From: Escherichia coli
Lineage (GTDB): Bacteria; Pseudomonadota; Gammaproteobacteria; Enterobacterales; Enterobacteriaceae
Assembly (NCBI RefSeq): GCF_045037415.1
Contig: NZ_CP173438.1
Strand: one strand, 5' to 3'
DNA: 64,000 bases
Below, in pieces: positions 2,601 to 53,487 of this stretch. The position numbers and the translations under genes were made by a program. The notes below the pieces were generated by a model. The model made no database searches. It was not told where the DNA came from and was given only the letters and a program-made list of their open reading frames with translations. Numbering within the stretch: position 1 is the first letter of the stretch; the number at the start of each line of letters is the position of its first letter.

Positions 2601-4025
2601 TTACTGCATTAACAGGTAGATAGTGCTGTCGCCGCGCTGAATGTTCAGTGCCAGCACAGACGGTTTGCTGTCGAGAACTTTACGCAGTTCAGCGATGTTT
2701 TTCACTGCCTGCTGGTTCGCGCCAATAATCACATCACCTTTCTTCAGGCCGATCTGCGCAGCCGGAGTCCCCGTTTTCACGTTGTTCACCACCACGCCCT
2801 GATCTTTGCCTTTGTTACTCATCTCAGCGCCTTCAATGCCGTTGAAGATGGTGCTGGAATCAACCTGATTCTGGCTGCTCTGCTGAAGTTCCAGGTTCAC
2901 GTTAACCTGCTTCCCGTCGCGCAGTAAGCCCAGGGTCAGTTTGCTACCTACCGGCATAGTGCCCACCTGAGCACGCAGTGCGGCAAAGCTGCTGATTGGC
3001 TTACCGTTCAGTGAGGTGATCACATCACCCGCTTTAATGCCCGCTTTCGCGGCGGAAGAATTCGGCAGAACCTGGCTTACGAAAGCACCGCGCTGAGCGT
3101 CAACTTTCATCGCTTTCGCCAGATCGGAGTTCAGCTCAGTGCCCATAATACCCAACTCACCACGTTTCACCTGGCCGTATTCCACCATCTGCGAGGTCAG
3201 GTTTTTCACCATGTTGCTCGGGATAGCAAAACCGATACCGATGTTTCCGCCGTCCGGTGCGAGGATCGCGGTGTTGATACCAATCAGTTCGCCGTTCAGG
3301 TTAACCAACGCACCACCTGAGTTACCCCGGTTGATCGCTGCATCGGTCTGGATGAAGTTTTCGTAGTTTTCAGCGTTCAGGCCGCTACGTCCCAGCGCAG
3401 AGACAATCCCGGAAGTTACTGTCTCGCCCAGGCCGAACGGGTTACCAATTGCTACGGTGTAATCACCCACGCGCAGCGCATCAGAATCCGCCATCTTAAT
3501 TGCGGTCAGGTTTTTCGGGTTCTGGATCTGGATCAACGCGATATCAGAGCGCGGATCTTTGCCAACCATCTTCGCGTCGAACTTACGACCATCGCTAAGC
3601 TGGACTTTAATCACCGTCGCGTTATCAACAACGTGGTTGTTGGTGACGACATAGCCTTTATCGGCATCAATGATGACGCCGGAACCCAGCGCCATGAATT
3701 TCTGTTGCTGGCCGCCGCCATTACCGCCCGGGCCCCCCTGGCAGAACGGAGAGCTCTGGAACGGAGAACCCTCCTGGCAGAACGGAGAATCATCACCGAA
3801 GAACTGCTGGAAATTACGCGGCATACGCGGCGTATTAACGGTTGTGCTACCTTCTACGTTAATGCTGACCACTGAAGGCATCACCTTTTCGAGCATCGGT
3901 GCAAGGCTTGGCATCTGCTGGGCTGTCGTTGCTGAAGAAGTCTCAGCCGCCGTTGCAGAGAGCGGAGATAACGCCAAACCTAAACTCAGAGCCAGTGCAC
4001 TCAGTGCTAATGTGGTTTTTTTCAT
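2601..4025 (-). CDS. degP: periplasmic serine endoprotease DegP/HtrA (trypsin domain + 2 PDZ)
   Basis: 474-aa translation with signal peptide, GNSGGAL serine protease motif, PDZ regions. Confidence 0.95.
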   Translation of the reverse strand: MKKTTLALSALALSLGLALSPLSATAAETSSATTAQQMPSLAPMLEKVMPSVVSINVEGSTTVNTPRMPRNFQQFFGDDSPFCQEGSPFQSSPFCQGGPGGNGGGQQQKFMALGSGVIIDADKGYVVTNNHVVDNATVIKVQLSDGRKFDAKMVGKDPRSDIALIQIQNPKNLTAIKMADSDALRVGDYTVAIGNPFGLGETVTSGIVSALGRSGLNAENYENFIQTDAAINRGNSGGALVNLNGELIGINTAILAPDGGNIGIGFAIPSNMVKNLTSQMVEYGQVKRGELGIMGTELNSDLAKAMKVDAQRGAFVSQVLPNSSAAKAGIKAGDVITSLNGKPISSFAALRAQVGTMPVGSKLTLGLLRDGKQVNVNLELQQSSQNQVDSSTIFNGIEGAEMSNKGKDQGVVVNNVKTGTPAAQIGLKKGDVIIGANQQAVKNIAELRKVLDSKPSVLALNIQRGDSTIYLLMQ

Positions 4026-4069
4026 GTATTTCAGTCTCGATTAACAGATAACGCAAAATTGCTGTGTTC

Positions 4070-17528: not shown

Positions 17529-18539
17529 TTATCGGTAATACACTTCGAAGGTGGCAACAGAATTAACCCGACCACTTTTGACGCTACCCATTTTGATGTA
17601 GCGTGCTTTTAACGGAATAGTAACATTTTGATTTAACGTCGTTTTTTGAACAGGTGTATAGTCTGTATCAAATACCATCACATTGTTATTACTATCGAGG
17701 ATCTGCAGACCAACTCCTTCCGCCATTCCTGAACCAGACTCAATATTAAGAATATTATTACCCGTTACTCCAGTAGAACCTGATGAAGTAAAGCGGTAAT
17801 CAACTTTTACATCCTGAGAACATTTTTCAATCTGAATTTTAAACCGATCATCGGAAACTACAGGTGACACATTGTTAACATCAAAATCATCTGTGCCAAT
17901 ATCATTGAGTGGAACGGTAATATTTTTTTCTATAAGGTCGCATGTGCCCGGTTGAATATTGACCGGAACAGAACTAAAACGAAGCTCTCCAATAACACGA
18001 TTGTCATACTTCCAGTCAGCAACCAGTTTGCTGGTATCAATGGTCCCATTACCGACAGGTCCTGTGACAATAAACTGAATAGCTGCATGTATTGTAATCG
18101 GATAACCATATCCTTTAATCACTGTTGACGAGCCTTTATGCCAGGGCGTCATTAAATATCCGGCGGTGAGTTGCGCACTGGTGTTATTCGCCCACGCCGC
18201 GCGAAAACCGATTCCTGGCACATTAGTCTGAAACACATTGTTAAGTGGGTTATCAGTACGCATATCACCGTTTGTCAATACGGTATATCCTTGCCAGATC
18301 TCACCATTTGCCGTACAGGAAACTGAAATTGACGGACTGTTCGCATTTACTGTCGCAATAATCGTTCCAGGAACGGCATCGCTATTAACAACCAACGCAG
18401 GCACGGAGAATTGTACTGTTGCCGGATTTCCTCCATTTCCAGAAATGTTACAACCGGCGAAAACCTCAGGAATGACGCCCCAGCTAAGAAATATTATGGT
18501 CAATAATGTTCGTATATAAGAGACGAATCCTGGCTTCAT
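17529..18539 (-). CDS. fimbrial adhesin-like protein (two-domain tip subunit), last gene of accessory chaperone-usher operon
   Basis: 336-aa translation with signal peptide and pilin-type C-terminus ...ATFEVYYR; longer than a structural pilin, consistent with lectin + pilin domains. Confidence 0.75.
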   Translation of the reverse strand: MKPGFVSYIRTLLTIIFLSWGVIPEVFAGCNISGNGGNPATVQFSVPALVVNSDAVPGTIIATVNANSPSISVSCTANGEIWQGYTVLTNGDMRTDNPLNNVFQTNVPGIGFRAAWANNTSAQLTAGYLMTPWHKGSSTVIKGYGYPITIHAAIQFIVTGPVGNGTIDTSKLVADWKYDNRVIGELRFSSVPVNIQPGTCDLIEKNITVPLNDIGTDDFDVNNVSPVVSDDRFKIQIEKCSQDVKVDYRFTSSGSTGVTGNNILNIESGSGMAEGVGLQILDSNNNVMVFDTDYTPVQKTTLNQNVTIPLKARYIKMGSVKSGRVNSVATFEVYYR

Positions 18540-18560
18540 TATTTTTTCCTGTCTTATTTG

Positions 18561-21038
18561 TTATCGGCAATCCATTGTGGCTTTATAGATACCCGTGGTG
18601 TATTTTTCTGGCACTGTGACAACTCCTGTACATTGCTGGTTAATCTCTTTTCCCCACTGTACCGTAAATGTCATTGATTCTTGCACACCAGTAATATAAA
18701 CCTCCCCATCTTCACCAACAATCGCTGTACTATTCCCTAATGTCAGCAATGCCCCAAAGGGTACGCGTTCTTTATTATGGACTAATGTCAACAAGGCTCG
18801 TATTCCGCTACGTGCATCAAAATCGACACCAACAACAGCCCCTTTCGAAGGAATAACATCTTGTGTGGCATCAGAAATATCAAGACTATCGTGCCCCTGT
18901 GTATTCACAGTAATAGCGTTATGTCGATAATTCGTCATATTGGGAACAATCGCGTTTCCCCAATAATCAGTATAAACGCCTTGCGCATTTTGTACTTTTA
19001 CATTGGCACCCTCATTAATATGCACGATCGCGAATGAATCCTGCACTGATTGCCCCAATGTTACTCCATGAGCATGAGCAACCACCGCACCTTGCGCACT
19101 GTAATTCCACTGACGACTATTTTTATCATAGCTATATCCCAGACCGAATTCCCCCACTGAGCTACGATAACGTCCATTCATGCTGGCATCATAACCCACA
19201 TTATTATCAGTATAACTTTGCTGTAAATTATAACTCAGGTTGTTATCTTGCAGAGCAGTACCGCCAATTCCCAATTGATGTGATGTATTACTTTTATCGG
19301 AACGGTTTACGTTATACATCGCCCATGAATCTGGCAGCCAGCGAGAGAGAGGAATATTGAGTGTTAATGAAAATTGCTGCTCACCAGCCATTCCTGGCGT
19401 TTTCGTTAGTGTGTAATTAACAGACCAATTAATGTTACTCCAGGTCGTACTGTATCCCATTCCTATACTGCGTTCGGCCCCATGCATTCCCCAATAATCC
19501 TGTTGATAACCGTTAAGGTAGACCGAGCCCCAACGACCAATATTTTGTGAAAGATTAATTTGTAAACGATTACGCCGATTATTTGTCTGTCGATAACTGT
19601 AAATACCCTTGTCATCAGGTGTATCACGTTGATCAAGTGCTTCCTGGAAAGTGTAAAATTGTGATGTAGAATAACGATAACTTGCCAGAGTTACTGTCGT
19701 ATCAGTGTCTGGAAAATCTTTCGCATACTGTGCACGCCATGACAGTCCTGTAGCATCATCACGCCCATCATCAAACTTCGTTTCTGCTGCGGTGATATCA
19801 ACAGATACCGACCCCAGACGGCCTAAATCAGCGCCAATCCCTGTCACACCAGAATGATAAATTGAGGCACCAAGTATGCCGCCATAAATCGTTATTCCAT
19901 AGGGCAAGCCATATATCGCGGTTGCAACACCAAAAACAGGTGTCTCAGCATGATTATCGTTGTCACGGTATTTTCCAGTTGCAAGACTATATTTTAATGC
20001 GCCTTCTCGCTGTAGAATTGGAACCGTTGAACTGGCCTGAATAAAACTGTGTTCTTGCCCGTTGGTTTCTTTGATGGTGACTTCCAGATCGGCCCCCGCC
20101 GTTACCTGGCTTAAGTCTTTAATTTCAAATGGCCCTGCCGATACCCACGTTTGGTAAATAACATAGCCGTTTTGTTTAATCACAACTTGTGCATCGCTGT
20201 TGGCAATACCACGAACCACTGGCGCAAAGCCTTGTTCGCTGTCAGGCAGCATACTGGTGTCCGTTTCAAGCTTTATACCTGTCATCTGCACACTGTCAAA
20301 AAGATCGCCATTTGTGAACGTCTGCCCGACTTCCATCTGGCTTCTTAATGCTTTGATATCGCGTTGCAAACTGGTGCTGATCGACTCCCAACTGGAGTCA
20401 CTGTAAACGGTATTATTTCGTAGCCGCCATACGCCTAAATTAATCCCTGAATTTAAATTCAACCAATTTGAATTCAGGTTATCGCCATCACTGTTTTGCC
20501 GGGAACCACTGGCGTAATAACTTAACCAAACCGCACTCTCACCATCACTCCAGTATTTCGGTGAAATACTCCCTGCGGCCCGCGCATTCTGATAGATTTG
20601 CGGGATCCGCAGACACAGCGTTTGGCTGTCTAACTGGAAATCATAACGTGCGCCATCAATAATCTGAGCAATATCACCAAACTCAGTGTCATCATCCATT
20701 ACTTGTAACGCGGGAATGTCGTCAACTTTAAGACCGAACTCACGGAGATCCGCCTTTGTAAAACGAGGGATGAGCCTTTTTTTATCCGAAGACAGAATGA
20801 AGGTAATATTTCTCTTATCAAGATACTCTTGCCCCCACATAACAGAGGTAAGATATACTCCCGGAGTTAAGTTATTATTATTAACAAAATCCTCCAGCAC
20901 TTGTGTATTTTCAAGTGGGCTATCCAGCTCCAGGATACGAAGGTTAAATTCATCTCGTGCATAGCTCAATGAATACACTGCCGATAATGCAAATGTTATC
21001 CCAGTTAAGACAAATGTGCGATGCAATGGTAGCAGCAT
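18561..21038 (-). CDS. fimbrial outer membrane usher protein
   Basis: 825-aa translation with usher features (N-terminal signal, plug and barrel segments, C-terminal Cys pair). Confidence 0.85.
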   Translation of the reverse strand: MLLPLHRTFVLTGITFALSAVYSLSYARDEFNLRILELDSPLENTQVLEDFVNNNNLTPGVYLTSVMWGQEYLDKRNITFILSSDKKRLIPRFTKADLREFGLKVDDIPALQVMDDDTEFGDIAQIIDGARYDFQLDSQTLCLRIPQIYQNARAAGSISPKYWSDGESAVWLSYYASGSRQNSDGDNLNSNWLNLNSGINLGVWRLRNNTVYSDSSWESISTSLQRDIKALRSQMEVGQTFTNGDLFDSVQMTGIKLETDTSMLPDSEQGFAPVVRGIANSDAQVVIKQNGYVIYQTWVSAGPFEIKDLSQVTAGADLEVTIKETNGQEHSFIQASSTVPILQREGALKYSLATGKYRDNDNHAETPVFGVATAIYGLPYGITIYGGILGASIYHSGVTGIGADLGRLGSVSVDITAAETKFDDGRDDATGLSWRAQYAKDFPDTDTTVTLASYRYSTSQFYTFQEALDQRDTPDDKGIYSYRQTNNRRNRLQINLSQNIGRWGSVYLNGYQQDYWGMHGAERSIGMGYSTTWSNINWSVNYTLTKTPGMAGEQQFSLTLNIPLSRWLPDSWAMYNVNRSDKSNTSHQLGIGGTALQDNNLSYNLQQSYTDNNVGYDASMNGRYRSSVGEFGLGYSYDKNSRQWNYSAQGAVVAHAHGVTLGQSVQDSFAIVHINEGANVKVQNAQGVYTDYWGNAIVPNMTNYRHNAITVNTQGHDSLDISDATQDVIPSKGAVVGVDFDARSGIRALLTLVHNKERVPFGALLTLGNSTAIVGEDGEVYITGVQESMTFTVQWGKEINQQCTGVVTVPEKYTTGIYKATMDCR

Positions 21039-21104
21039 AAATTCCCTTGCGCCCGTAATATTATAAATACAGATCGGTTATTTATAGTAATACACTTCGG
21101 TGAT

Positions 21105-21821
21105 TTATAACTTTTGTTGTCGTTTCCCAGAACTTGAACCGTAGTCAGTTATCACCGACCATTCAACAATACTTCCCGCTCCGACAGGAAGACTAAACCG
21201 CTGCTCAGAAAATGGTCCTACCATCATCAATAATGCGCCAGGTTCAGATTTGCTCTCGGTGGGAACAATATTTTTTCCCGATACTGTCAGATCACTGAAT
21301 GAAATATAAAAAGGCGTTGGATTTTTTACTATGAGCTTCCCCGCTTCTTTATGGAACTTAAGTTTTTCCCATGCAGTGAGAGCATCACTATTATCCAAAG
21401 AAGCTGGCCGCCAAAATAATTTAAGCCGGGCTTTCATTGCAAATTGCAAGGTATTTCTATCTTTTAGTTCTTCTGGCATCGCAGAAACAGATTTTATGTT
21501 TGCCAGAAACAAACTTTCCCTATCCTGAGGAAGTTTGTTTTTATCACCTGTAAATACAATATGGAGTAATGTTTGCCGATTTTCTTCAAGTTTATAAACT
21601 GGAGGCGTAATGAGAAAGGGGGCTTTAGAGCCATCAATATTACTCACCCAGCTTTGCACCAAATAGCGTGCATATGCATCTTTATTTTTTAATGTGATTT
21701 GAACTTCATTTTGATTTGAAGGATAGATAATACGTGTACCGCCAAGAACAATACTTGCCTGAACTTGCAATGCCGTAAGAAGAAACGTAAAACCTAAACA
21801 AACTCGAGAAAAAACTGACAT
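21105..21821 (-). CDS. periplasmic fimbrial chaperone (PapD-like)
   Basis: ORF 21105..21854; start placed at ATG 21821 (MSVFSRVCLGF... signal peptide), preceded by ggaggg 8 nt upstream. Confidence 0.8.
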   Translation of the reverse strand: MSVFSRVCLGFTFLLTALQVQASIVLGGTRIIYPSNQNEVQITLKNKDAYARYLVQSWVSNIDGSKAPFLITPPVYKLEENRQTLLHIVFTGDKNKLPQDRESLFLANIKSVSAMPEELKDRNTLQFAMKARLKLFWRPASLDNSDALTAWEKLKFHKEAGKLIVKNPTPFYISFSDLTVSGKNIVPTESKSEPGALLMMVGPFSEQRFSLPVGAGSIVEWSVITDYGSSSGKRQQKL

Positions 21822-21866
21822 AAATAACCCTCCGTGGTCAAACAGTCCTTTCAAACACTATGAATA

Positions 21867-22433
21867 TTAGCGATAAAATACTTCGAACGTCGCAGATGAG
21901 GCATACTTACCCGCAGTCGGCGCGTTATTACCAACCTGAATAACATTGGCGGTGTAATTGAATATTGTTGGAGTAATGCTCCCGGCATTATCAACATCAG
22001 TGGATGCATCGGGAACTGAACCATCAAATTTCACATCGTTAGCACCGCCATTTTTATTTGTCACCGTAATACCCACATTTGTTGCACTGCCAGCCCCAGC
22101 TTCGCTATTTTCCAGACGCAGGAAACCTGCATCCGTTGTCGTTCCAGAAAATGTCAGGTTTAGTTTGTCCACCAACGGATCGCATTTTATTAATTCAATT
22201 TTAAAATCTTTTGACGTTCCAATACTACCGTCTCCAGAATAGTCCGCTGGGTAAGTATCTGCAAAAGTGACTGTCCCTGTTGTACTGGCAGACTCGTTTA
22301 CATTAATTTCGCAAGTATCGGCAACAATTTTACCGTTAAAGTTAACCACTCCGGTATCTGTAGCAAATACACTGGTACTTACTACAGCGATGAGACTTCC
22401 TGACACTAACAGAGAAAGCAATTTTTTATTCAT
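21867..22433 (-). CDS. major fimbrial subunit (type 1 pilin-like), first gene of accessory operon
   Basis: 188-aa translation, signal peptide, Cys pair, C-terminal ...SSATFEVFYR donor-strand motif. Confidence 0.85.
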   Translation of the reverse strand: MNKKLLSLLVSGSLIAVVSTSVFATDTGVVNFNGKIVADTCEINVNESASTTGTVTFADTYPADYSGDGSIGTSKDFKIELIKCDPLVDKLNLTFSGTTTDAGFLRLENSEAGAGSATNVGITVTNKNGGANDVKFDGSVPDASTDVDNAGSITPTIFNYTANVIQVGNNAPTAGKYASSATFEVFYR

Positions 22434-22734
22434 AAAAATCCCTTAATTATGAGGTAATACACATGATTCCATTCCAGAGCGACTGGTCAGGGCTTGATAA
22501 ATATTGATATTAGAAATATATCCACCAAATAATATTATTTTTAGATTAGAACAAAAAACACATAGCCTGTCTATACAAACTGCAGTAATAAAACAATAAC
22601 CACATGAATTTTAAAGTGTTGTTTTTATTTTAAGAGTTTAAGGTAATAAAATATAACATAAACCCAAAATATATATTAATGGTCGTATATTCATTAAATA
22701 AATATTTATTTGGTTTATCTAAATGATTTCATTA

Positions 22735-27889: not shown

Positions 27890-29139
<1,250 letters not shown>

Positions 29140-48986: not shown

Positions 48987-51377
48987 ATGGCAATTAACAA
49001 TACCGGCTCGCGGCGATTACTCGTCACGCTAACAGCCCTTTTTGCAGCGCTTTGCGGGCTGTATCTACTCATTGGCGGAGGCTGGCTGGTCGCGATTGGC
49101 GGCTCCTGGTACTACCCTATCGCTGGCCTTGTGATGCTCAGCGTCGCCTGGATGCTGTGGCGCAGTAAACGCGCCGCGCTTTGGCTGTACGCAGCCCTGC
49201 TGCTCGGCACTATGATTTGGGGCGTCTGGGAAGTTGGTTTCGACTTCTGGGCGCTGACTCCGCGCAGCGACATTCTGGTCTTCTTCGGCATCTGGCTGAT
49301 CCTGCCGTTTGTCTGGCGTCGCCTGGTCATTCCTGCCAGCGGCGCAGTTGCCGCACTGGTGGTCGCACTGCTGATTAGCGGTGGTATCCTGACCTGGGCC
49401 GGATTTAACGATCCGCAGGAAATCAGCGGCACCTTAAGCGCCGATACCACGCCAGCAGAAGCCATCTCCCCCGTTGCCGATCAGGACTGGCCTGCCTATG
49501 GTCGCAATCAGGAAGGTCAACGCTTTTCACCTCTGAAACAAATTAACGCTGATAACGTCCACAAGCTGAAAGAAGCCTGGGTGTTCCGTACTGGCGATGT
49601 GAAGCAGCCGAACGATCCGGGCGAAATCACCAATGAAGTGACGCCAATTAAAGTGGGCGACACCCTTTACCTGTGTACCGCGCACCAACGTCTGTTTGCG
49701 CTGGATGCCGCCAGCGGTAAAGAGAAATGGCATTACGATCCTGAGCTGAAAACCAACGAGTCCTTCCAGCATGTAACCTGCCGTGGCGTCTCTTATCATG
49801 AAGCCAAAGCAGAAACTGCTTCGCCGGAAGTGATGGCGGATTGCCCGCGTCGTATCATTCTTCCGGTCAATGATGGTCGTCTGATTGCAATTAACGCTGA
49901 AAACGGCAAGCTGTGCGAAACCTTCGCCAATAAAGGCGTGCTCAATCTGCAAAGCAATATGCCGGACACCAAACCGGGTCTGTATGAGCCGACTTCGCCG
50001 CCGATTATCACCGATAAAACCATCGTGATGGCCGGTTCAGTCACCGATAACTTCTCAACCCGTGAAACATCTGGCGTGATCCGTGGTTTTGATGTCAACA
50101 CCGGGGAGCTGCTGTGGGCTTTTGATCCGGGCGCGAAAGATCCGAATGCGATCCCGTCTGACGAACATACCTTTACCTTTAACTCACCAAACTCGTGGGC
50201 ACCAGCGGCCTATGACGCGAAGCTGGATCTGGTCTATCTGCCGATGGGCGTCACCACGCCAGATATTTGGGGTGGTAACCGCACACCGGAACAGGAACGT
50301 TATGCCAGCTCGATTCTGGCGCTGAATGCCACTACCGGGAAACTGGCGTGGAGCTACCAGACCGTTCACCACGACCTGTGGGATATGGATCTTCCGGCAC
50401 AGCCGACGCTGGCGGACATCACCGTTAATGGTCAGAAAGTGCCGATTATTTACGCTCCGGCGAAAACCGGCAACATTTTTGTGCTCGATCGTCGTAATGG
50501 TGAACTGGTGGTTCCGGCCCCGGAAAAACCGGTTCCCCAAGGTGCTGCCAAAGGCGATTACGTGACCCCTACTCAACCCTTCTCGGAACTGAGCTTCCGT
50601 CCGACGAAAGATTTGAGCGGTGCGGATATGTGGGGTGCCACCATGTTTGACCAGTTGGTGTGCCGCGTGATGTTCCACCAGATGCGCTATGAAGGCATTT
50701 TTACGCCGCCATCTGAACAGGGTACGCTGGTCTTCCCGGGTAACCTGGGGATGTTCGAATGGGGCGGGATTTCCGTTGATCCGAATCGTGAAGTGGCGAT
50801 TGCCAACCCAATGGCACTGCCGTTTGTTTCGAAACTGATCCCACGCGGTCCAGGCAACCCGATGGAACAGCCGAAAGATGCCAAAGGCACGGGTACGGAA
50901 TCCGGCATCCAGCCACAGTACGGTGTACCGTATGGTGTCACGCTCAACCCGTTCCTCTCACCGTTTGGTCTGCCATGTAAACAGCCAGCATGGGGCTATA
51001 TCTCAGCATTGGATCTGAAAACCAATGAAGTGGTGTGGAAAAAACGTATTGGTACGCCGCAGGACAGTATGCCATTCCCGATGCCTGTACCGGTGCCGTT
51101 CAATATGGGTATGCCGATGCTTGGCGGGCCAATCTCCACGGCGGGTAACGTGCTGTTTATCGCCGCTACGGCAGATAACTACCTGCGCGCTTACAACATG
51201 AGCAACGGTGAAAAACTGTGGCAGGGTCGTTTACCAGCGGGTGGTCAGGCTACGCCAATGACCTATGAAGTGAATGGCAAGCAGTATGTGGTGATCTCCG
51301 CAGGCGGTCACGGTTCATTTGGTACGAAGATGGGCGACTATATTGTGGCTTATGCGCTGCCGGATGATGTGAAGTAA
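48987..51377 (+). CDS. gcd: PQQ-dependent membrane glucose dehydrogenase
   Basis: ORF 48969..51377; start moved to MAINNTGSRRLL (796 aa); N-terminal TM helices and PQQ beta-propeller. Confidence 0.95.
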   Translation: MAINNTGSRRLLVTLTALFAALCGLYLLIGGGWLVAIGGSWYYPIAGLVMLSVAWMLWRSKRAALWLYAALLLGTMIWGVWEVGFDFWALTPRSDILVFFGIWLILPFVWRRLVIPASGAVAALVVALLISGGILTWAGFNDPQEISGTLSADTTPAEAISPVADQDWPAYGRNQEGQRFSPLKQINADNVHKLKEAWVFRTGDVKQPNDPGEITNEVTPIKVGDTLYLCTAHQRLFALDAASGKEKWHYDPELKTNESFQHVTCRGVSYHEAKAETASPEVMADCPRRIILPVNDGRLIAINAENGKLCETFANKGVLNLQSNMPDTKPGLYEPTSPPIITDKTIVMAGSVTDNFSTRETSGVIRGFDVNTGELLWAFDPGAKDPNAIPSDEHTFTFNSPNSWAPAAYDAKLDLVYLPMGVTTPDIWGGNRTPEQERYASSILALNATTGKLAWSYQTVHHDLWDMDLPAQPTLADITVNGQKVPIIYAPAKTGNIFVLDRRNGELVVPAPEKPVPQGAAKGDYVTPTQPFSELSFRPTKDLSGADMWGATMFDQLVCRVMFHQMRYEGIFTPPSEQGTLVFPGNLGMFEWGGISVDPNREVAIANPMALPFVSKLIPRGPGNPMEQPKDAKGTGTESGIQPQYGVPYGVTLNPFLSPFGLPCKQPAWGYISALDLKTNEVVWKKRIGTPQDSMPFPMPVPVPFNMGMPMLGGPISTAGNVLFIAATADNYLRAYNMSNGEKLWQGRLPAGGQATPMTYEVNGKQYVVISAGGHGSFGTKMGDYIVAYALPDDVK

Positions 51378-51382
51378 CCATA

Positions 51383-51404
51383 ATGCCCGGAGAGATCCGG
51401 GCAT
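51383..51404 (+). terminator. hairpin downstream of gcd (between convergent gcd and cueO)
   Basis: atgcccgg agagat ccgggcat followed by atttcc. Confidence 0.45.
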
Positions 51405-51423
51405 ATTTCCGAATACGGTCTTT

Positions 51424-52974
51424 TTATACCGTAAACCCTAACATCATCCCCGTATCTTCATGCTCCAGCAGATGGCAGTGCGCCATATAAGCATGTTCTT
51501 TCGGTGCATCGTGATTAAACTTCACCAGCACTTCGCTGACATTACCTTCTACCTTAACGGTATCTTTCCAGCCTGCGCGATGCGTCGCTGGCGGTTTGCC
51601 ATTTTCTGACAAGATACGGAACTGCGTACCGTGGATATGGAACGGATGCAGCATCATGTCGCCCACGCCAGAGATAACCCAACGTTCGTACTGCCCTTTC
51701 GCCGCCGCAAACATCGGCTTATTCATATCAAACGCCTGACCGTTGATTTTGTTGGCATGGTGGAAATCGAACTTCCCGCTGTGGTTCATATGATTCATAT
51801 TGCCGTGCCCCATATGGCCCATCATCTGGCTGTGATCCATCCCGGCCATGGCCTGATCGCCATATTTCTCCATCAGCATCTGCATCCCCATCATATCGAG
51901 CATTGGGTCCATAGAAAGTTGCAGATTGCGTACCGTCAGCCCTTCCAGCGAAGGTAACGCAGGCAGGCTACTTAATGTGTCTGGCAAAGCACCAGAGGCA
52001 CTAATGGCAATCGGCTGAATCCGCATTACCGGATGCGGCTTGTCAAACGGCGCAATCGCCATCCCCATCTGGCTGACCGGCAGCGTCACCAGGTCAAAGG
52101 GTTTGTTATCGTTAACCTCCACCAGCACTTCAAAACGCTCGCCCATCAGCACTGGCAGCTCGTTCACCTTCACCGGTTCAGGTAGCAGACCGCCGTCGCT
52201 GGCAATCACATAAAGCGGGCGATTGTCGCTGGTGGCGAAATTGAGCGAGCGGGCATTACAGCCATTGAGCAAACGCAGGCGCAGCCAGCCACGCGGGGCA
52301 GCGTGTTGCGGGTAGATTGCACCGTTGGTCAGCAACGTATCGCCAAACCAACCCACAGCGGCGGTCATCACATCCAGTTGATAATCAATCTGCCCGTCTG
52401 CGTTAAATTTTTTATCCTGAACAATCACCGGGACATCATCAATACCCCACTGTTTTGGCAGCATTAATTTCAGGATCTCGTCATCTTCAATCACCACCAA
52501 ACCAGCCAGCCCCATCGCCACCTGACGTCCGGTCTTGCCATGTTGATGTGGATGGAACCAGCAGGTAGCGGCAGGTTGATCAACGTTCAACGTCACCGAG
52601 CGCTTGCCACCTGGCGGAATAATTCCCTGCGGGCCGCCGTCCACTTCACCCGGTACTTCCAGCCCGTGCCAGTGCAACGTCGTCTCTTCCGTCAGTTGGT
52701 TGTAGATATCAACCGTTACCGCTTTGCCGCGCTGTAATTTCACCGCCGGCCCCAGCAGATTGCCGTTATAGCCCCAGGTAGTTGCGGTTTTCCCGCCAAA
52801 GGTGGACTGACCTGCGCCAATAGTTAACTGAATGCGATTACGGGCATCGGTCGTGAGCAAATCAGGGATTGGTAACGTTGGGCGTTCCGCCGCAAATACT
52901 GCGCGGCTCCACAGCGGCAAGGCTGAAGCCACCCCCAGCGCGACGGAATATTTCAAGAAATCACGACGTTGCAT
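51424..52974 (-). CDS. cueO: multicopper oxidase CueO (Tat-exported cuprous oxidase)
   Basis: ORF 51424..53013; start moved to [14 protein letters not shown] twin-arginine signal (516 aa); HWHG and [13 protein letters not shown] copper sites; Met-rich insert. Confidence 0.95.
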
Positions 52975-53139
52975 AGTTATTTCCTTATTCTTAAGCAGGC
53001 GAAACAAAATCAAACGTTGAGCATAGTCCTTCCCCTTACGGGAAGGTCAAGCCGCAGACACAATTTAATCGACAATAATGGTCGTCGCCTCGCTCGCAGT
53101 GTGCTAACGTTTATCTTCTTTAAGCCCCTGGTAGAAGCA

Positions 53140-53487
53140 ATGAAGACGTTTTTCAGAACAGTGTTATTCGGCAGCCTGATGGCCGTTTGCGCAAACAGTT
53201 ACGCGCTCAGCGAGTCTGAAGCCGAAGATATGGCCGATTTAACGGCAGTTTTTGTTTTTCTGAAGAACGATTGTGGTTACCAGAACTTACCTAACGGGCA
53301 AATTCGTCGCGCGCTGGTCTTTTTCGCCCAGCAAAACCAGTGGGATCTCAGTAATTACGACACCTTCGACATGAAAGCCCTCGGTGAAGACAGCTACCGC
53401 GATCTCAGTGGCATTGGCATTCCCGTCGCTAAAAAGTGCAAAGCCCTGGCCCGCGATTCCTTAAGCCTGCTTGCCTACGTCAAATAA
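53140..53487 (+). CDS. yacC: uncharacterized periplasmic protein YacC
   Basis: ORF 52969..53487; start moved to MKTFFRTVLFGSLMAVCANSYA signal peptide (115 aa). Confidence 0.8.
   Translation: MKTFFRTVLFGSLMAVCANSYALSESEAEDMADLTAVFVFLKNDCGYQNLPNGQIRRALVFFAQQNQWDLSNYDTFDMKALGEDSYRDLSGIGIPVAKKCKALARDSLSLLAYVK

Follow-up and report, generated by a model that had tools for sequence, protein, structure and literature searches.

The gene described here is the chromosomal cueO of an Escherichia coli lineage that is all but identical to strain SK1144 (a reading to which we give a probability of about 98%). It lies within a 64,000-nucleotide stretch of DNA that was analysed as a whole (the window), corresponds to a feature that is already known, and is a standard, intact copy with nothing new about it. 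The product carries every defining feature of the CueO family that can be tested from sequence, and identical DNA is annotated as cueO in RefSeq genomes. The preliminary description of this DNA had recognised a canonical CueO arrangement and this stands, with the twin-arginine motif, the Met-rich insert and the full set of copper ligands kept; it had also given the exact interval of the gene but left the strand, which is minus, unstated. The features of the locus are collected in Table 1.

Table 1. Coordinates of cueO and associated features in the window.
Feature	Position	Strand	Details
cueO coding sequence	51424..52974	minus	516 aa + TAA; multicopper (cuprous) oxidase CueO
Tat signal peptide	52891..52974	minus	aa 1–28, followed by AERPT...
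Twin-arginine motif RRDFLK	52951..52968	minus	aa 3–8
Met/His-rich insert	51772..51912	minus	aa 355–401; 14 Met and 5 His in 47 residues
T1 copper ligands	window CueO		H443, C500, H505, M510; all present
T2 copper ligands	window CueO		H101, H446; all present
T3 copper ligands	window CueO		H103, H141, H143, H448, H499, H501; all present
Shine-Dalgarno AAGGAA	52981..52986	minus	6 nt upstream of the cueO ATG
cueO promoter, MerR/CueR type	53020..53050	minus	-35 TTGACC (53050–53045), 19-nt spacer, -10 TATGCT (53025–53020)
CueR operator dyad CCTTCCC-N5-GGGAAGG	53028..53046		inside the promoter spacer; perfect 7-nt inverted repeat
Intergenic hairpin ATGCCCGGA-gaga-TCCGGGCAT	51383..51404		perfect 9-bp stem; within the 46 bp separating the stop codons of the convergent genes gcd and cueO
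Antisense ORF	51631..51957	plus	108 aa, GTG start; non-coding mirror of cueO codons 340–448

Translation runs through 517 codons, from an ATG at 52974–52972 to a TAA at 51426–51424. A mechanical ORF listing carries the frame on to a TTG at 53013 (a 529-aa version), and this start was dropped for the ATG at 52974, which is the RefSeq-annotated start in identical sequence and in K-12; the 172-aa yacC extension from the ORF listing was likewise dropped in favour of the annotated ATG start. The protein scores 979.2 bits against the CueO equivalog model NF008205 of NCBIfam (cut-off 525), with aa 1–516 aligned to positions 1–528 of the 529-position profile, and contains three Pfam multicopper oxidase domains, Cu-oxidase_3 (55–165), Cu-oxidase (221–293) and Cu-oxidase_2 (396–516), all above their gathering scores. 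The gene order is gcd / cueO / yacC-speED, and the wider arrangement hpt-gcd / cueO / yacC-speE-speD is that of K-12. The window is ordinary E. coli chromosome in an orientation reversed with respect to K-12 numbering.

The twin-arginine signal RRDFLK named in the preliminary description occupies residues 3–8 and agrees with the Tat consensus (S/T)-R-R-x-F-L-K. It is followed by a hydrophobic core and a cleavage context of VFA|A, and the crystallised mature CueO (1kv7 and others) begins at residue 29 of the window protein. The Pfam TAT_signal model matches aa 1–20 with 21.1 bits, slightly below its gathering score of 22.7; sub-threshold scores are usual for so short a model. CueO is described as a Tat substrate (PMC11494321).

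All 12 of the catalytic copper ligands (T1, T2 and T3) are present. They fall in four copper-binding motifs, HWHG at residue 101, HPH at 141, HPFHIHG at 443 and a fourth of 13 residues at 499. The Met/His-rich string quoted in the preliminary description matches the insert letter for letter, and its density of methionines is far beyond chance: against the Met content of the other residues, the binomial probability of at least 14 Met in 47 is ~1e-10, and across the 135 ORF segments in the window that reach 100 aa the runner-up 47-aa stretch has seven. The region had been described as thought to bind extra copper, which is right in substance but dated, as crystal structures place Cu5, Cu6 and Cu7 within the insert or adjacent to it. 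The ligands of all three are present in the window protein (M355, D360, D439 and M441 for Cu5; M358 and M362 for Cu6; M364, M368 and M376 for Cu7), with M355, D360 and all those of Cu6 and Cu7 lying within the insert; the ligand identities are taken from PMC11494321. The insert lies over the T1 site; according to the same study (2024), it is dispensable for catalysis and aids the recruitment of strongly chelated Cu(I), with Cu5 as the sole substrate site and a negligible role for Cu6 and Cu7.

The alignment with K-12 CueO that had been proposed as a check is gap-free, with 511 of the 516 residues identical, and the protein aligns end to end with K-12 CueO PDB chains including 5b7e, 7f0v, 1kv7 and many others. 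Relative to K-12 CueO (YacK, b0123; PDB 1KV7, 3OD3, 3NT0, 5B7E) the length is the same (516 aa) and identity is 99.0% at the amino acid level and 96.8% at the nucleotide level. The two share the Tat signal, the length of the Met-rich insert, the copper ligands, the promoter and operator, the 5′ UTR and the neighbouring genes, and differ by five substitutions (S191N, S271N, K350N, G399S and A464T), none of them at a metal ligand. G399S is the single one inside the Met/His-rich insert. All five are conservative, surface-type changes (S/N, K/N, G/S, A/T). The coding sequences differ at 44 synonymous and 5 non-synonymous codons, as purifying selection acting on the cueO frame would produce. Outside the gene, a 155-bp block containing REP/BIME-like palindromes, which K-12 carries between the stop codons of cueO and gcd, is lacking in the window (at 51378–51380), so that the spacer is 46 bp rather than 201 bp.

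The same allele is widespread. From 51300 to 53200 the DNA is shared at 100% identity with E. coli SK1144 and no fewer than 14 further complete genomes, whose annotation for it reads gcd / cueO / yacC. Of 5426 complete E. coli genomes, 5424 have a match, and 869 records match at an identity of at least 99%. Across its 64 kb the window is collinear with SK1144 and departs from it at two places, a 6-bp indel and a SNP. The SNP is at position 29083; the indel, at 22618, leaves a short tandem run with one TTGTTT unit fewer and is intergenic, upstream of a chaperone-usher fimbrial operon with four genes.

In E. coli L37 (NZ_CP034589.1) cueO is annotated as a pseudogene (frameshifted, with an internal stop) and has 83% identity over 80% of the Met-rich segment, which could be an artefact of assembly quality or a genuinely decayed allele. 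Nineteen PLSDB records labelled as plasmids carry cueO at 96.6–100% identity (e.g. CP054241.1, NZ_CP057359.1, NZ_OP242285.1). Several of these are 0.65–4.9 Mb and are probably chromosomes or chromosome fragments, and others, among them one E. fergusonii record of 100 kb, are 100–400 kb, sizes that suggest captured chromosomal segments or mislabelled replicons.

A direct pattern search on the cueO strand finds a promoter reading TTGACC-TTCCCGTAAGGGGAAGGAC-TATGCT, with the operator ACCTTCCC-GTAAG-GGGAAGGA inside it; the published CueR signal is ACCTTCCC-(5)-TGGAAGGT, a 19-bp spacer is typical of CueR promoters, and the CueR targets listed there include the yacC-yacK(cueO) divergon (PMC1526738). 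The whole region upstream of cueO as far as yacC, with the promoter, operator and 5′ UTR, is 100% identical to K-12. The site is the known CueR-type promoter, and its control by copper and CueR would be that of K-12. A scan for generic sigma-70 consensus promoters between 51300 and 53250, which allows spacers of 16–18 nt only, finds no site on either strand; the cueO promoter is missed because its spacer is 19 nt.

The hairpin between gcd and cueO is conserved in K-12 and may be a bidirectional terminator. It is uncalled in a terminator scan because a long T run is absent on both sides. The two calls that the scan did make here (52449–52429 and 51589–51601) were discarded, as both are inside the cueO coding sequence and their number is at chance level (2 found, 1.9 expected).

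From the K-12 enzyme, with which identity is 99%, we infer that this allele encodes an active cuprous oxidase that contributes to copper tolerance, is exported and is regulated by CueR. A rise in cytoplasmic Cu(I) would lead CueR, bound to the dyad in the over-long 19-nt spacer, to reshape the promoter such that RNA polymerase starts transcription, as in K-12. The Tat system would then export the precursor, with its 28-residue twin-arginine signal, into the periplasm, where the enzyme of three cupredoxin domains is predicted to oxidise toxic Cu(I) to Cu(II). Electrons would pass from Cu5 to the T1 copper and on to the T2/T3 trinuclear cluster, at which O2 is reduced to water. The insert would cap the T1 site and limit the access of bulky phenolic substrates, and its thioethers may provide a transient Cu(I)-binding surface that supplies Cu5.

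Several relatives share the fold of CueO. The Hafnia alvei CueO (PDB 8R4F; PMC12041951) is likewise a cuprous oxidase of three domains whose T1 site is covered by a Met-rich domain (E = 1.3e-216), but this domain is larger and the alignment breaks into two stretches around the insert, that of the window being of the E. coli type. Plasmid oxidases of the PcoA/CopA type (TIGR01480), FtsP (SufI) and laccases have the same three-domain cupredoxin fold, several with Tat signals, and give weaker matches to the window protein, such that the gene might be taken for one of these paralogues and not for cueO. FtsP, a Tat-exported E. coli cell-division protein, has no copper sites. The PcoA/CopA-type enzymes are periplasmic, Tat-exported copper resistance oxidases that likewise have Met-rich regions; PcoA is encoded in a pco operon and regulated by PcoRS/CusRS, not CueR. 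The curated cut-offs reject all three identities: the FtsP model scores 298.9 bits (cut-off 581), the PcoA-type copper_res_A model 120.4 (478.95) and the laccase model 37.9 (558.9), and only the CueO model is above its own cut-off; an ascorbate oxidase model is also far below. FtsP/SufI structures align to aa 2–350 only and have no Met-rich insert, and the chromosomal synteny is that of cueO, making a paralogue vanishingly improbable. The gene could still be cueO and yet be a decaying or functionally altered allele, with an enzyme impaired by the five differences from K-12, one of which lies within the insert, and at least one E. coli genome (L37) does have an annotated cueO pseudogene. This is very unlikely, since the frame is intact and full-length, all ligands are conserved, and synonymous codon differences far outnumber the non-synonymous ones, all five of which are conservative; the allele also recurs in many independent complete genomes. 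An intact, typical cueO accounts for the locus, none of the findings speaks against it, and the idea that G399S subtly retunes Cu(I) recruitment is a long shot.

The 108-aa antisense ORF noted in the preliminary description exists as given, and the account offered for it holds in part. It was said to be rich in His and Met codons; it is rich in His (19 residues) but not in Met (5). The codons of the ORF and of cueO are in exact register, and the His-richness of the ORF arises because a sense ATG (Met) reads as CAT (His), while sense CAT and CAC (His) read as ATG and GTG (Met and Val) on the antisense strand. The Met-rich insert was also said to account for the ORF, and it does explain the composition but not the open frame. 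In this register antisense stops arise from sense TTA, CTA and TCA only, and the frame is open because these codons are rare in cueO (10 of 516). The length of the open run, 115 codons, is unremarkable: among 5000 shuffles of the cueO codons the mean is 139±38 and 72% have a run at least as long, so the ORF is no longer than the composition of the sense gene predicts.

The idea that the ORF is, at least in the lineages with an open frame, a genuine overlapping gene whose small, His-rich product may bind metal has in its favour 108 open codons with a GTG start, a product that is 18% His, and an open frame in five of the nine E. coli alleles examined, the window allele included. The His-richness is however an arithmetical mirror of the ATG codons, and the open run falls below the shuffle mean. 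The frame is not kept open across the nine alleles: a TAG is present at antisense codon 82 in K-12, O157:H7 G5295, strain 110 and GPEC1176, owing to a change in the Leu367 codon from CTG to CTA that is synonymous in cueO, and because the frame is broken in these four alleles by such a change the ORF is not a gene. Strain differences fall at the third positions of cueO codons, the first positions of the antisense frame, and are silent in cueO yet alter the antisense protein (e.g. D2N, V41I, G74R and W92R). The consensus scan of both strands between 51300 and 53250 gives no promoter-like site for the ORF, and the 12 nt upstream of its GTG (GGAACTGCGTACC) contain no Shine-Dalgarno-like purine run. 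An overlapping gene is therefore highly improbable, and translation of the antisense peptide in the lineages with an open frame, as part of a copper-related overlapping pair, is no less far-fetched. The ORF is a by-product of a coding stretch rich in Met and poor in Leu (TTA/CTA) and Ser (TCA) codons, and has no function.

Elsewhere in the window, Rfam and tRNA scans of its whole length find nothing in or near cueO, and the only Rfam family match is HtrA_thermometer (RF02700) in the degP 5′ leader (4020–4065, minus strand; 77 bits, gathering score 52). The fimbrial operon downstream of the SK1144 indel (~17529–22433, minus strand; genes for a fimbrial protein, an usher, a chaperone and a fimbrial protein) is situated between fhuA and mrcB, which in K-12 are presumably separated by just a short gap. 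Within aceF there are ~300-bp direct repeats with 83% identity (63271–63878), in keeping with the tandem arrangement of lipoyl domains in the E2p subunit. A 136-aa off-frame ORF rich in Met, Ile and Thr (~59502–59909, plus strand) lies inside a DUF3300 (yacH-like) gene and is probably a compositional by-product of a repetitive coding region.

CueO is among the best-studied enzymes of bacterial copper homeostasis, and the allele in the window is a common natural variant of it. Long antisense ORFs of odd composition are the expected mirror of the sense codons opposite Met-rich coding segments, and become candidate genes only where the frame is conserved across strains.
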